DNA of 64,000 nt from Nitrospirota bacterium. Lineage in GTDB: Bacteria; Nitrospirota; UBA9217. Made by a program: the position numbers. Of this stretch, positions 36,201-42,200 are shown piece by piece (the first letter of the stretch is position 1; each line of letters opens with the position of its first letter). The stretch covers positions 1 to 64,000 of the forward strand of contig CAVWHO010000008.1 in assembly GCA_963754875.1 (NCBI GenBank). Direction: 5' to 3'.

Positions 36201-39200
36201 TAAATCGTTTCCAGCCTGTGGTCCCGTAGTTTCGGATAGCGCCTCCGGCACAGGGCAAGCGTACAGTGATAGGGATTGTTGAAGCCCAGGCCGAGACGGC
36301 TGAACTCGTAGCGCAGGAACGTCACGTCGAAACTCGCGTTGTGGGCCACAAGGGCGCTGTCCTTGATGAAATGATGAAAATCATGAAAAACGGATTCGGG
36401 CTTGGGCCGGCCTTCGAGCATATCATCCGTGATGCCGTGGACCTTTCGTGCGCCGCACGTAATTCGGATTTCCGGGTTAATGAGGGAATGGAATTCGTCA
36501 GCGGTGTGGGCGTCTTCGACGGCTACCGCGCCGAGCTCGATGATCCTGCCTCCGCGGGACGCGGAGAGGCCGGTCGTTTCAACGTCGAAGATTACATATT
36601 TCTGCTTCGTCAAGGCAAGCGCCTCATCTGTGAGACATTCTCAAGTGTAGTGAACTTGCTTTTGCTGGCAGGATATAAAAAAACGCTATCACAAAGGAGG
36701 GTGAAGATCAATACCCCGGAAATACCCCTCCTGGGGCAAAATAGAAATGGCTAATTTTTATGCAGTTGCGGTCAAGACTTTAGTTATAAGCGGATTTGTC
36801 GCCGATATCGTTGGCGATAGGCATGAATACTTTTCGCAGCGTAAAGATGACAAGCATGACGGCGATCAGGATAAGGCCATAAGACGCGCCTCGTCCCGTA
36901 AGACTGTTGTTCGAAACCAGCAGCAGGTAGATCGGCATGATCATGGCAAGAAGATAGCCCTCGAAGAGCTTGAAGCAGAATGCTTCCTTCGCGGTCACGA
37001 GCCCCAGGCATCCGGAAAGCGGGAGCAGGAGCAGCGGGGTGTAAGATCCATGGACCAGCACGCCCGCAAGGGACCCCTTGCCGAGGTAAAGCAGCACGAC
37101 AAGACAGACAAGGCTGAGGTAGTACAAATTTTTCAGAAATCCCTTGATCTTGCCGATATAAAGATGAATGAAGAACACGCTCATGCCAACGGACGCATAA
37201 AGACCATAGATAAGGATATCTGCTGACCGGTCCATGAGCATCGTTTCGGTAGTTGAAGATGCCGTCGCCAGCAAAAACGCCAGACCGGCAATGAGAATTG
37301 CGGATATCACGATACCGACACGGTAGAGCGCAACCGTTATTTTATCTTCTCTGGTAAGGGGCTGGAATACCTGCGTAGAACCCATTGATCATTTTCTCCA
37401 TTCAGAACTTTTTCTTCGACTTCCCGTTTGGAAGTCGCAACGCGATACCGAGGTCACCCTTTTCTCACTTTTTTCCAGAAAGCCAGGTCGCTCATCATGA
37501 GCCCCAGAAGTTCACGGGGCGTCATTTCCGAGGTTTCCTTACACCTACAGGCATCGTCATTAACTGCACCCGTTTGCTTTTCTGCCGTTGTTCTCTCTTT
37601 CCCCGGACGGCCCGGATCATCGGTTTTGTGGTAACGGGTAATCATTCTGTGCTCCTCTGCTCTTATTCTACATCATCTGAGAAAAATATGCCACCTGACA
37701 TCTTGACATGGACCATTGCAGCCATTATTATGTTGTTGGTAGTAACGTTACTCTACTCTGCAATAATGAAAGCAGCGTCTCTTTTATGGAAACAGCTCGA
37801 TTACGTAGTATTTACCAAAAAATACGCAAGTCCTTAAACGACCCGAGAGATCCTTTTCTCGTGGTGTCCATTGAAACACAAACGCTCCTCGTCTGCAAGA
37901 ACGACGCTATTGTGGAGCGGTATAACGCATCGACCTCCCGTTTCGGCAACGGCAACCGGGAGAACTCGCTCAAAACACCGCTCGGTGTTCACCGGATCAG
38001 GGAGAAGTTCGGAAGCGACGCGCCGGCGGGACGCATTTTCCGTGACCGCGAGGACACGGGCGAAGACTGGGACCACAGCAAGACAGGAGACAATCTGATC
38101 CTGACCCGCATTCTGAGGCTCGAAGGTCTTGAGGAAGGGATCAATAAGGGCGAGGGAGTAGATTCCTATGAGCGCTACATCTATATCCACGGCACCGGCC
38201 GGGAGGACCTGATCGGCACTCCCCTGTCGCACGGATGCGTGTGCCTGCGCAATCACGACATCGTTCGTTTGTATGAATTGGTCACCGAAGGCACACTCGT
38301 GTACATCGATCCTCCAGCCATTGTCATCAACGAACGCCGATGCCGCAGCATCCATTTTACGGGCATTTTCGGCAGCGGCATGAGCGCGCTCGCACAATAC
38401 CTGCGCTTTCAGGGGATAATAGTCTCGGGTTCAGATCGTTTCCATGCAAGTGCGGATACCGCCTCCGTCCGGCGATCGCTTGAAGGGCTCGGGTGTGGCA
38501 TCGTCCCTCAGGACGGTTCAGGTGTCACTGGTGATACTGACGTCGTCTGCGTCTCGACCGCAATCGAAGACTCGAATCCCGACATCGCTGCCGGCCGCAG
38601 CCGCGGGATTCCTATCATCCATCGCTCCGATCTGCTGAGCGCCCTCATCGCCGCAAAAAGAACAATAGCAGTCGCCGGCACAAGCGGTAAATCGACGGTG
38701 ACAGCGATGATCTTTGAATTTCTGACCGCTTGCGGGAAATCGCCCTCCCTCATAAGCGGTGCTGCCCTGCGCAGACTCGAAAAGCAGGGGCTTATCGGCA
38801 ATGCCTATAGCGGCGGGTCCGATCTCCTTGTGGTCGAGGCGGACGAAAGCGATGGAACGCTGGTCAAATATTATCCCCAGGCCGCGGTCATTCTGAATGT
38901 GTCCAAGGACCACAAGACCACTGAGGAGATAGCAAAACTCTTCGAAATACTGGCGGCACAATCTCCCTGGACGGTTTCCAATGCCGACGATCCAATCCTT
39001 GCTTCCCTTCCCGCGACCGTGCGCTTCGGCCGAAACGGTTCGTCCTCGTGGCGGCCGGACCGGGAAGAACTCCTGCCGGCTTCAGTGAAGCTTTTCAAAA
39101 ACAGCACTGAATATCATCTGCCGCTGCCGGGTGAACACAATCTGGAAAACCTGCGCGCTGCGATTTGCGTGTGCGAGCATTTCGGCTGCGAGCAAACAGC

Positions 39201-42200
39201 GCTTGCCGAAGCGGTAAAAAAATACGAGGGTGTGGCCCGGCGTTTTTCCGTGACCACGACAAGGCAGAACGTGCACGTGGTCGACGACTTTGCCCATAAT
39301 CCGGCAAAGATAGCCGCCGTTATTCGCGCTGCGCGGGGCCTTTCCAGCCGCGTCATTGCCGTGTACCAGCCGCACGGGTTCGGTCCGACACGGTTCTTAA
39401 AGGAAGAATACATCGCGACGTTCCGGACTGGCTTCCTCCCGAATGATTCCCTGTATCTTTTGCCGATCTATTATGCCGGGGGCACGGCGCAAAAAAATAT
39501 TTCCTCGGACGATATCATAGGTGGTCTTGGTCCCGTACCCTTCAATGCACAAGCGCTCAACGATCGCGATGAGTTGTTGCTCCGATTAAAAGCCGATGCA
39601 AAACCGGGAGACTGCGTTCTTGTCATGGGCGCGCGGGACCCGTCGCTGCCGGCGCTTGTAAAAAAGGTTGTGGAGCTGTTGGGCGGAGAAAGCTGAGCGT
39701 CCTGAAGAATTGCCGCGGAAAGCATCAGTGACCTGCACGCAATGAATTTTCACTACTTTCGTTTTATCGATTGTCTCGGATGCACCCGCCGACAACATTG
39801 ATTCGTGAATAAAAAATTTCCTTCTTGCCGGGAAAGCGGCTTCGCGCCGTTGCTTCACTCAATCTCCGCCCATTCAGCAATGAGTCCAAAGTATTTCATT
39901 GGTTTGTCAATCATCCGGTAGAATTTTGGATTTCGCAGAAAGATTATGCTAGAGTTTACCTAACAGTGCATTGTTTGTTTCGTCATCGAAGGAACCATTG
40001 CTATGGACGACGTGACCCAAAGAACGATCGAAGTGATCAATAACGCAGCGGGGGAACAAAATCCCCCTGGCCCCTGCGAAGTGGGCGCTGCAGAGAAATC
40101 CGATGTCGAACTGCTGGATGCCTACTCCCGGGCGGTCATAACCGTGGTAGAGGCTGTCGGTCCTGCTGTCGTGAGCATCTCAACCGGGACGAGGTCGAAG
40201 AACGCTGAGCCCGAGACGGGCGGGGCCGGATCCGGGGTCATCATCGCGCCGGACGGCTATGTTCTGACGAACGATCATGTCGTGCACGGTTCGAAATCGC
40301 TGGCCGTGTCGCTGACGAACGGAACGACGCTCGCGGCAGTCATCGTGGGCACGGATCCTGCTTCCGATCTTGCCGTAATCCGCGCCGATTCCTCGAACCT
40401 GCCGTTCGCAACTCTCGGTGAATCCGCATCACTTCGAGTCGGGCAACTCGTGATCGCCATCGGCAATCCTTTCGGCTTCCAGTCCACCGTATCAACCGGC
40501 GTCGTAAGCGCTCTCGGCAGGGCGCTTCGGAGCAGGGAAGGACGGCCCATCGAAAACATCATCCAGCATACCGCCCCGCTGAATCCAGGCAATTCGGGAG
40601 GCCCGCTGGTGGATTCGCGCGGCAGGATTGTGGGACTGAATACGGCAATCATCATGGGTGCACAGGGAATCGGCTTCTCCATCCCTTCGGATACTGCAAA
40701 ATGGGTCGTTTCCCAGCTCCTCACCCTCGGCAGGGTGCGCCGGGGATATTTAGGCATTGCCGCGCAGCAACGACCGCTCAACCGGAGGACGGCGCGCTAT
40801 TTCAATCTGACGCTGACGTCTGTCGTGGAAGTCCTCTCGGTGACGCGAGGCGGCCCGGCCGCACAGGCTGGAATGAGGAAAGGCGACCTTATCGTGGCCA
40901 TGAACGGGACCGATATCACGACGGTGGACCTGCTCCAGAAATTTCTTTCAGACTGGCCCATCGGCAAACCGGTCAACGTGTCCGTGCTCCGTGTGCAGGA
41001 ACGTCTGGAGGTTGAGGTTACACCATCCGAGGCCGGGGCGCACGAATGATTCCCATGCAAAAACCCGGAATTTGAAACACTCTACTCCTCCGACTCTTGT
41101 CCCCAAACCAATGACCGAGATGTCCTCACCTCTAGTCGCACTGACAGATGCAGTGTTTGCCCGGGATCGGACCGGATGATTGCTCCCCCGACAGATCCTG
41201 TTTGTCCCACGTCAGGATCCGTTCTAAGCCCCAAGCCATCAGTACCACGAAACCAAGGATAATAGGCCATGCCCACCCCGTGGTCCATTCCAGTATATCT
41301 ACAGATGTCATGTTCGATCACTTCCTTCCTAAACGTCTTGCTGATTTAATTATAGCGAACCTGCGACAAGGAGGGCACTAATTAACGGGGCGCCTCGAAC
41401 TGTTCTCATTCTCAAGTCTTACTTGTTTTGCCCGACCGTCTCCATGACGAATGCGCAACTCCTGGAATCCGACAGTACCCTACTGAGGATGTCCCTGTCG
41501 CATTTTCCGCTTTCTGTTCCCTCTCGATGACGGTCAGCGCAACGTCGTTGAGAATCAGGATCGACTCGATCACCACAACCTTGAAGGTCCAGTCTTTCTT
41601 CTTGATTTACTGATTGAAGGAAGTCATAATAATAGAAGGAGCACGGTTTGGCCCTATGGATTCTGCATGAGAGAAGACCTCGGTCCTGCCCGAGGGGGCT
41701 CCCCTGACAACGAGGAAGGGACTAATAGGTTTGCACGACTCCTGAACAGTCATATGCATGTGAGACCGGATAAAATAAAAGCGATTACGAAGCTCCAATC
41801 GATGTTCACGGAGATATTCGGGCTGGGCAAAGCTGCAGCGCTGACCGCGATCCTGGCCATCACCGTGGTCCTTGCCCTTGCCGTCTACTCGTTCATCCAC
41901 CTTGCCCCGCCCCACACCGTCACGATCACGAGCGGGCCGGAAGGCAGCATCTTCCGGAACAACGCGGAAAAATATGCGAAGATCCTGGCCCGAAACGGCG
42001 TGAAGCTGAAGGTCCTTATGTCGCAGGGCTCGCAGGAAAATTTGAAGAGGCTGGCTGATCCCAAATTCAATGTGGACGTAGGGTTTGTGCAGGGCGGTTT
42101 GGCAGGCGGCGTGAACATCGACAAGTTGGTTTCGCTCGGGAGTCTCTACAACGAACCGCTGCTCATCTTCTACCGGAGTTCGAAAGAGCTCGAACTGCTC

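Follow-up and report, generated by a model that had tools for sequence, protein, structure and literature searches.

What might a protein do that joins a putative L,D-carboxypeptidase to a Mur ligase in a genome with its own murC? The window (the whole stretch of Nitrospirota DNA analysed, 64,000 nt) encodes such a protein at 37786..39696 on the + strand. According to the survey's finding it is a one-gene fusion of an ElsL-type YkuD domain with a complete ligase, and the locus is indeed a single, intact open frame of 636 aa. The Pfam layout given there was reproduced (YkuD 24-174, Mur_ligase 189-292, Mur_ligase_M 296-463, Mur_ligase_C 485-617), as were the NCBIfam scores of 136.7 bits for ElsL (cut-off 270), 284.9 for murC (335.1) and 97.3 for mpl (388.7), with both domains below their own cut-offs. 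We consider it likely that the fusion shortens peptides recovered from the old wall and, as an analogue of Mpl, joins them to UDP-MurNAc again. The evidence in hand consists of the domain order, intact catalytic motifs, the clade of the ligase, the lost MurC arginines, pairings with carboxypeptidase genes and the distribution among genomes.

The start at 37786 is favoured because its ATG is aligned in 9/9 orthologous loci, and because a putative sigma-70-type promoter-like site (TTGACA-17-TATTAT, 37703..37731, +, 11/12 consensus positions) overlaps the in-frame ATG at 37708. A 662-aa start was rejected since it falls within the -35 box. Promoter-like sites number 4 compared to 1.5 expected from shuffled sequence, and resembling boxes are found in 2/9 orthologous loci. 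The neighbours of the gene differ among UBA9217 genomes (HtrA, DUF2301, Ku/LigD in some), and a comparison of neighbours between these genomes yielded no operon around it. An assembly artefact was rejected as source of the fusion, which recurs in >100 database clusters.

The absence of a signal peptide, claimed earlier, holds in a hydropathy scan: there is no hydrophobic N-terminal stretch (maximum -0.42), and the 19-residue maximum across the whole protein is 1.16, both values being hydropathy only. Neither hydropathy nor Pfam gives a sign of a signal peptide, a membrane helix or a domain that binds peptidoglycan. Only 1/116 fusion orthologues exceeds the hydropathy threshold, and that one has a truncated start. 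The AlphaFold model of the fusion reaches a pLDDT of 95.3 and a pTM of 0.93.

The YkuD-fold domain (aa 24-174, 37855..38307, +; PF03734, E 3.9e-21) is predicted to be a cytoplasmic L,D-carboxypeptidase of ElsL type. Its catalytic segment from His135 to Cys151 (HG...SHGC, 38188..38238, +) is retained in 116/116 fusion orthologues, and both residues are invariant in 71/71 aligned YkuD domains. The isolated domain scores 140.4 bits on the ElsL model NF040925 versus ≤27 bits on L,D-transpeptidase models. The margin of ElsL over the next family exceeds 110 bits, although its score stays below the cut-off of 270. The fold was recovered by Foldseek and VIA-align. Z scores are 13.9 for Csd6 and 13.0 for Pgp2, both carboxypeptidases, versus 15.0 for transpeptidases, and the fold search does not separate the two activities. 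The domain alone comprises ~178 aa, stand-alone relatives ~170-190 aa, and none of 86 such relatives has a hydrophobic N-terminus. Three more YkuD genes are present in the genome, and by eye all of them begin with signal-like leaders.

The ligase part (aa 189-617, 38350..39636, +) has the three domains of a Mur ligase. Aligned to MurC it retains the P-loop GTSGKST (aa 298-304, 38677..38697, +) as well as Glu351 and His376, the Mg ligands by the same alignment. The amino-acid-binding residues of MurC are Tyr346, His348, His376, Arg377 and Arg380 (PMC3060825). Both His of this set are kept, while Phe502, Gly531 and Pro534 occupy the remaining three positions. The Phe lies in DDFAHNP (aa 500-506, 39283..39303, +) at the position of H. 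influenzae MurC Tyr346 and agrees with Mpl (Phe374-Ala375-His376). Gly531 and Pro534 replace Arg377 and Arg380 in QPHGFGP (aa 528-534, 39367..39387, +), an assignment based on alignment to 1gqq with numbering by hand. The Arg after His is absent in 113/113 clade representatives with a pattern match (147 examined). A further loop reads GARD (aa 615-618, 39628..39639, +) with a clade-specific Arg617; it is GAGD in MurC and SNG in Mpl, and its R and D are invariant in 117/117 aligned clade members. The changes sit in exactly those loops which PMC3060825 names as substrate determinants, and the ATP/Mg residues are retained. Judged from these replacements, loss of the arginine pair points to a peptide substrate, not to its length.

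In our trees the ligase belongs to a third, unnamed clade separate from MurC and Mpl with 100/100 support. It is neither MurC nor Mpl. A tree with five MurD sequences as outgroup gave no clear order of the clade and MurC at its base, hence we do not claim that the ligase derives from MurC. The earlier label of a second MurC-like ligase is right in that the gene is additional to murC and scores nearer to MurC; the clade is a separate one, though, and also occurs stand-alone elsewhere. Canonical murC is a separate gene in the division/cell-wall cluster of contig C5 (576.6 bits on TIGR01082), and it is present beside the clade ligase in the genomes checked. The clade comprises an estimated ~5,900 stored stretches of the GTDB collection. 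A protein atlas returned solely automatically named MurC-like clusters, a plasmid collection canonical murC-type matches only, and a search for homologues among short proteins alone only fragments.

Which genes accompany the ligase? At 80 GTDB loci of the clade an ElsL-like domain is fused to it 14 times, fused but frameshifted once, encoded directly upstream 11 times and 5 kb upstream once; 53/80 have no ElsL-like neighbour and 0/80 an S66 neighbour. In the alphaproteobacterial branch (Sphingorhabdus, Caulobacteraceae proteins) the ligase is arranged head-to-head with an S66/LdcA-type gene in 59/60 loci with >900 bp upstream, and 17/17 submitted ORFs from these loci passed the Pfam S66 cut-off. 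The same architecture is seen for true mpl, which adjoins an S66 gene in 2/2 genomes of Nitrospirota family f18. S66 was found neither in the present genome nor in 53/53 other UBA9217 and 9/9 other genomes with an ElsL-ligase pair. Among genomes with a stand-alone ligase, neither ElsL nor S66 was found in 26/26 Nitrospirota and 7/7 Desulfobacterota, 33 genomes in total, and S66 was found in only 8/18 non-Nitrospirota genomes, which counts against the proposed route. Near the stand-alone ligases of Nitrospirota, Elusimicrobiota and Bacteroidota no cell-wall gene recurs; one NamZ and two SPOR-domain genes were seen.

The clade ligase and Mpl do not co-occur in the samples searched, which represent few independent events. 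Among 241 Desulfobacterota genomes Mpl is found in 0/12 with the ligase, Mpl-like genes being present in 130/241 (E≤1e-75); the nominal p of 6.5e-5 overstates this exclusion because the 12 ligases form ~3 lineages. For 151 Bacteroidota genomes the counts are 0/5 and 49/151, and taken alone this phylum gives p 0.14. Mpl is likewise missing from 26/26 Nitrospirota with a stand-alone ligase, and no Mpl above cut-off was found in 5 UBA9217 genomes or 5 other genomes with an ElsL-ligase pair.

The survey had read the fusion as trimming and re-ligation in one protein. This proposal gains from the missing arginine pair, the S66/LdcA pairing and the lack of overlap with Mpl. From the genomic evidence we infer what each half of the protein does and on which substrate, that it works in the cytoplasm, which step comes first and by what means the peptide is released and taken in. 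Exported amidases might free the peptide, which would then be taken up; this part is a guess. The YkuD domain would trim the recycled peptide and the ligase would join it to UDP-MurNAc, such that the product could enter synthesis at MurF. Trimming could also follow ligation. UDP-MurNAc could be supplied by NamZ and a MurU-AmgK-like fusion encoded elsewhere in the genome.

Other recycling genes are consistent in part with such a route. Besides NamZ and the MurU-AmgK-like gene, both halves of which score below their cut-offs, the genome carries NagZ-like and AmpG-like genes, the latter with 181 bits versus a cut-off of 350. Neither AmpD (PF01510) nor a full-length AnmK was found in the genome, which is 90% complete. 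A motif screen for MurQ, AnmK and AmpD also missed the housekeeping controls MurA, Alr and Ddl, and its negatives carry no weight. AmpG above cut-off occurs in 20/26 Nitrospirota with a stand-alone ligase versus 19/54 without ligase; 6/26 of the former lack it. Its presence tracks families, and many genomes have AmpG but not the ligase, so we give it little weight.

Could the ligase recycle peptides of another length? It might prefer the dipeptide L-Ala-D-Glu or accept any stem length, the carboxypeptidase partner being a lineage-specific add-on. The 33 genomes without ElsL and S66 would fit this, as would the loss of Arg377/Arg380, which leaves the length open. Moreover, 4 Bacteroidota loci have a gene for an NlpC/P60-SH3 peptidase at a distance of a few kb from the ligase. 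These four loci stem from close relatives, however, and plain synteny may be a sufficient explanation. Pairing with two unrelated tripeptide-making enzymes would also be superfluous for a dipeptide route, which makes this variant unlikely in our view. For comparison, the Psychrobacter Mpl shows 260 per min with the mDAP tripeptide versus 1.4 with the dipeptide (kcat/Km; PMC3060825).

A second MurC, be it a back-up or an isozyme adding another first residue, would explain the higher MurC than Mpl score (285 versus 97 bits) and the 34% identity to the genome's own MurC. Likewise MurC structures are the best Foldseek matches (TM 0.86 by target, Mpl only at rank 22), and one stand-alone clade member exceeds the murC cut-off (341.5 bits). 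The carboxypeptidase link would then reflect shared regulation only. Yet both arginines for the incoming amino acid are missing across the clade, canonical murC stands alongside in the genomes checked, and neither the Mpl pattern nor pairing with two carboxypeptidase families would be predicted; we regard a second MurC as quite improbable. Doubt may also be directed at the other half of the protein: the YkuD fold is shared by transpeptidases, carboxypeptidases and the amidase DpaA. With its score under the ElsL cut-off and no AmpD found in the genome, the domain might swap the fourth residue for another D-amino acid or act as a peptide-releasing amidase filling the AmpD step, while the ligase recycles peptides. 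We regard this, too, as quite improbable, given the lead of ElsL over other families, the S66 L,D-carboxypeptidase replacing the YkuD domain in the alphaproteobacterial branch and the lack of S66 in all 63 genomes searched that belong to UBA9217 or hold the pair.

Trimming and re-ligation by one protein, the preferred reading, can be set beside known systems. ElsL of Acinetobacter baumannii, a cytoplasmic L,D-carboxypeptidase of the YkuD family (Dai et al. 2021, PMC8649774; Simpson et al. 2021, PMC8630537), converts disaccharide-tetrapeptide to tripeptide without acting on pentapeptide (PMC8649774). The YkuD domain resembles it in being leaderless, in the catalytic His/Cys and as best match, and UBA9217 genomes resemble ElsL hosts in having no S66/LdcA match. 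It differs by the fusion to a ligase and by the 137-140 bits. The 636-aa protein lies outside the single-domain definition of ElsL (105-200 aa). Dai et al. 2021 kept only proteins of this length, hence fusions are outside their survey; their supplement lists no Nitrospirota, Syntroph- or Fibrobacter-type organism (PMC8649774). With MurC (TIGR01082; H. influenzae 1p3d), nearest by sequence and predicted fold, the ligase shares the UDP-binding loop, P-loop Lys, EADESD and DH, but differs at Tyr346, Arg377 and Arg380, in its place outside the division/cell-wall cluster and in clade. With Mpl (TIGR01081; Psychrobacter 3hn7; PMC3060825) it shares the three-domain fold, occurrence in addition to murC, lack of the Arg pair, the pairing with an L,D-carboxypeptidase, the proposed reaction and D-F-A-H, the sole diagnostic Mpl motif present. 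It is no orthologue: GI(C/G)GTFM, (S/T)AFFDKRSK, EPRSNT and SNG are absent, with QPHGFGP and GARD instead. Like Mpl it is found in addition to murC and linked to L,D-carboxypeptidases, and it is present where Mpl was not found, in few independent lineages and alongside 33 genomes without a known carboxypeptidase. The E. coli route of LdcA (S66) and Mpl, matched by the mpl-S66 pair mentioned above, shares trimming followed by ligation; here both steps would reside in one polypeptide of non-orthologous parts.

We lean slightly towards a wider reading, in which the clade represents a third family of UDP-MurNAc peptide ligases and the missing Mpl of many phyla. It would have drawn in two unrelated carboxypeptidases and become fused at least three times to one of them, with the coupling avoiding toxic UDP-MurNAc-tetrapeptide. 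The family would include Nitrospirota, Desulfobacterota, Fibrobacterota, Elusimicrobiota, Bacteroidota, Planctomycetota, Kiritimatiellae, Sphingomonadales and Caulobacteraceae. If so, ligase-bearing genomes without a known trimmer would point to further L,D-carboxypeptidases. Where LdcA and Mpl homologues are lacking, recent papers conclude that stem peptides are degraded, not re-used, in the bacterium concerned, and they carry this over to many other species (PMC13046382, PMC9790009). If the ligase is an Mpl analogue, absence of Mpl by BLAST does not equal absence of a recycling route, and thousands of genes now called murC are misnamed. A control search for S66 in C. crescentus gave no match, which leaves the picture there unchanged. 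Among Mur ligases, peptide recognition would moreover have been solved structurally a second, independent time, and one soluble 636-aa protein would give access to both reactions and their coupling.

Where did the fusion come from? A literature search yielded no description of it. In class UBA9217 (64 genomes, all one family) 55/63 other genomes match at E≤1e-100, as stated earlier, but just 45 of these copies run over the full length without a stop: a stop or frame change disrupts 4 (G007, G015, G033, G049), and another 6 are incomplete or divided between contigs. Similarly 117 of the 120 listed database clusters have all four Pfam domains, three do not. As a signature of the class the fusion holds inside Nitrospirota, where none was found among 150 genomes of other families, of which 26 carry the stand-alone ligase gene. 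No ElsL-like domain was found in 80 of the 150, a search without its own positive control, controls being run separately afterwards. Outside the phylum, in contrast to that claim, the fusion is also carried by Syntrophaceae, Syntrophorhabdaceae, Chitinispirillaceae, Fibrobacteraceae and Eisenbacteria. The tree places the UBA9217 copy among those of Syntrophales, Syntrophorhabdaceae and Fibrobacterota, and this nesting suggests horizontal transfer. Three origins of the fusion are required in 200/200 bootstrap trees counted. Its most likely source is a pair of neighbouring genes of Fibrobacterota type, and UBA9217 would have acquired it by transfer, either from Syntrophales-like bacteria or along with them.

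The gene at 37786-39696 (+) encodes a single 636-aa frame in which a YkuD domain (24-174) is followed by three Mur ligase domains (189-617; Pfam). The survey's finding had described such a frame joining YkuD to a complete Mur ligase, and its domain limits and profile scores were reproduced (ElsL 136.7, murC 284.9 and mpl 97.3 bits, all under their curated cut-offs). All four domains are present in 117 of the 120 listed homologues and not in every one as proposed. Its start at 37786 is preferred to an upstream in-frame ATG, because a promoter-like TTGACA-17-TATTAT site (37703-37731) covers the latter and the ATG at 37786 is where orthologues align. 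The AlphaFold2 model shows a pLDDT of 95.3, a pTM of 0.93 and a linker without disorder. The fusion is real and conserved. As previously held, the ligase is additional to the canonical murC, which scores 576.6 bits and is located within a division/cell-wall cluster on contig C5. Three other genes of this genome, murD, murE and one for an amidase, look shortened or divided between frames (C5, 41209-46103; C2, 71070-72149), a pattern suggestive of assembly indels.

The YkuD domain matches ElsL best (140 bits vs ≤ 27 for L,D-transpeptidase models). All 71 aligned YkuD domains share His135 and Cys151, and the His/Cys motif is retained in 116 of 116 fusion orthologues > 600 aa. By hydropathy, the N-terminus contains no hydrophobic stretch, in line with the signal peptide reported as missing, and the 86 relatives that stand alone (168-190 aa) likewise have no hydrophobic leader. 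The ElsL orthologues defined by Dai et al. are leaderless and 105-200 aa long (PMC8649774), hence fusions were left out; six taxon terms looked up in their supplement table are not named there.

According to its sequence the ligase is a third clade beside MurC and Mpl, the known ligase re-attaching recycled peptide to UDP-MurNAc. IQ-TREE separates the clade from both at 100/100 (84 rows picked from 155, and again in a 51-row tree), whereby the split is an unrooted result and MurD as root gave no resolved base. A search of 50%-identity representatives shows a wide family with the motifs GTxGK[ST], DD[FY]AHNP, QPHG[FY]xP and GARD. In MurC of the same genomes these read GxHGKTT, DDY[GA]HHP, QPHRY[TS]R and GAGD. 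Mpl of these genomes has [DE]DFAHHP, with the DFAH that is also present in the fusion, but EPRSN and SNG in place of QPHG[FY]xP and GARD. P-loop Lys302, Glu351 and His376 are retained in the fusion ligase. MurC holds the alanine carboxylate with two arginines, Arg377 and Arg380. Aligned to H. influenzae MurC (hand numbering), Phe502, His504, His530, Gly531 and Pro534 of the fusion take the places of Tyr346, His348, His376, Arg377 and Arg380, described as binding the incoming amino acid (Das et al., PMC3060825). An Arg after the His of the QPH motif occurs in 0 of the 113 representatives matching the pattern (147 examined). Loss of the arginines would fit a substrate whose alanine carboxyl sits in a peptide bond. 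One clade ligase (P0386) carries a C-terminal class II tRNA-synthetase-like domain, possibly a read-through artefact in a single sequence.

UBA9217 comprises 64 genomes of one family and 19 genera. The stop-free orthologues claimed for 55 of the 63 other genomes stand as matches at E ≤ 1e-100, but only 45 are full length and stop-free; 4 are interrupted by a stop or a shift of frame and 6 are partial or split across contigs. One further genome, beyond the 55, holds a contig-edge fragment. In one genome (G002 C12:303319-311391, locus L175) the 3' part of the ligase is present again as a partial copy, 17 kb from the intact fusion and close to several radical SAM/SPASM genes and one MurE-like gene. 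The fusion had also been called a signature of the class. It is indeed found in 0 of 150 Nitrospirota genomes of other families, 26 of which carry the clade ligase as a separate gene in addition to murC, but it also occurs in Syntrophaceae, Syntrophorhabdaceae, Fibrobacteraceae, Chitinispirillaceae (one likewise fused protein) and Eisenbacteria. The pattern DD[FY]AHNPxK gave an estimated ~5,900 stored stretches (not genomes; one scan) in the GTDB collection, the nearest 80 of which were examined. The ElsL-like domain is fused to the clade ligase in 14 (8 Nitrospirota, a deltaproteobacterium, Syntrophaceae, Syntrophorhabdaceae, Syntrophus, Fibrobacteraceae, one unclassified) and fused but frameshifted in one (Eisenbacteria). 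In 11 loci (Fibrobacterota, Elusimicrobiota, Eisenbacteria, unclassified) an ElsL-like gene immediately precedes the ligase, in one it is 5 kb upstream, and in 53 none was seen near the ligase. The lineage restriction does not hold, and the ligase family is the more interesting part.

In the tree, the UBA9217 fusions form one branch (100/98) nested among those of Syntrophales and Syntrophorhabdaceae, which in turn are nested among adjacent pairs of Fibrobacterota. The ligases that stand alone in other Nitrospirota group far from these, on a branch of their own (100/100). Three fusion events are required in 200 of 200 bootstrap trees counted, and in the simplest reading UBA9217 would have acquired its fusion by transfer. 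In A. baumannii and E. coli, ligating untrimmed tetrapeptide is reported to be toxic (PMC8649774, PMC8630537), which may explain why trimmer and ligase were repeatedly paired or fused.

The fusion probably recycles peptides within one protein, its ElsL-type domain being joined to an Mpl analogue that is no orthologue of Mpl. We consider it likely that the Cys151 domain would trim recovered tetrapeptide to tripeptide, which would be joined to UDP-MurNAc by Mur-ligase acyl-phosphate chemistry, the product entering synthesis at MurF. Within the phylum to which the Syntrophaceae genome belongs (241 genomes), a clade ligase is present in 12 and an Mpl match at E ≤ 1e-75 in 130 (59 over its curated cut-off), with no overlap; a thirteenth with a frameshifted fusion has no Mpl. 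These 241 genomes contain nine ElsL-like genes, of which six form part of a fusion with the clade ligase and two are in Mpl genomes. Bacteroidota (n = 151) show 5 and 49, again without overlap. Nominal p is 0.14 for Bacteroidota and 6.5e-5 for the 241 genomes, the latter overstated because the 12 clade ligases form about three lineages. S66/LdcA, an L,D-carboxypeptidase family without relation to ElsL, was found neither in this genome nor in 53 other UBA9217 genomes nor in 9 genomes from other phyla that carry the ElsL-ligase pair.

For the ligase branch that includes proteins of Sphingorhabdus sp. M41 and Caulobacteraceae we took 80 metagenome loci, whose alphaproteobacterial label is derived from these two named proteins. 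These ligases fall inside the clade (~64% median mutual identity, 35% to the query). Of 60 loci having > 900 bp upstream, 59 show an S66 gene and the ligase head-to-head, which count as one ancestral pairing and not 59 events; 4 of 20 with a shorter stretch do so too. All 17 S66 ORFs sent were over the Pfam cut-off, and a YkuD gene occurs in 0 of the 80. An S66 gene is also paired with true mpl in the Nitrospirota family f18, where mpl is directly upstream of S66 in both genomes (L342, G182:C27:267209-269022; G144:C43:208190-210003). We found no description of the fusion or the clade in the open literature, and the 12 members given in a Mur-family phylogeny include no such clade (PMC11915815). 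For Caulobacter (PMC13046382, PMC11980594) and Agrobacterium (PMC9790009) peptide degradation is proposed there from missing LdcA and Mpl. Mpl homologues mentioned for other Caulobacteraceae (53-54% identity, PMC11980594) are too close to Mpl to belong to this clade.

Stand-alone ligases speak against an Mpl analogue. Neither ElsL nor S66 was found in 26 of 26 such Nitrospirota and 7 of 7 such Desulfobacterota genomes, S66 was not found in 10 of 18 outside Nitrospirota, and no recurring cell-wall gene was seen in the neighbourhoods examined. A ligase taking a dipeptide, or indifferent to peptide length, would accord with these genomes and less with the recurrent trimmer next to it; we regard it as unlikely. 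Foldseek ranks MurC 1st and Mpl 22nd for the fusion ligase, as a second MurC might, but given Gly531 and Pro534 in place of Arg377 and Arg380 such a role seems quite improbable. The modelled YkuD fold does not discriminate between activities of this domain because transpeptidases (Z 15.0) tie with the carboxypeptidases Csd6 (Z 13.9) and Pgp2 (Z 13.0); given the ElsL match, a different reaction seems about as improbable as a second MurC.

Other recycling genes accompany the putative Mpl analogue. This genome (90% complete) has an AmpG-like gene under cut-off, a leaderless NagZ-like gene and three Amidase_3 matches; AmpD was not found and AnmK gave only a short spurious match. On contig C11 (L348:3692-6895) NamZ is followed by one 653-aa gene combining a MurU-like nucleotidyltransferase with an AmgK-like kinase, both halves under cut-off, a further fusion, here in the recycling of cell-wall sugars.

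Elsewhere in the window, a group II intron with reverse transcriptase/maturase (33355-34722 and 35007-35143, both (-); TIGR04416, 373 bits; Rfam RF02003) is located directly upstream of cas3 in a type I-E CRISPR-Cas operon. Short AT-rich words are repeated after a four-helix-bundle gene (PF05635, 35100-35866 (-)), immediately ahead of the intron. cas3 appears to occupy two frames by frameshift or assembly error, the HD-domain start in a 99-aa frame (32786-33085) and the rest in an 825-aa frame (30415-32892 (-)). Two Ku genes, a separate LigD primase-polymerase gene, LigD and DUF72 occupy 44968-49994 (-), and in three further genomes of this family the Ku/LigD block again lies close to the fusion.
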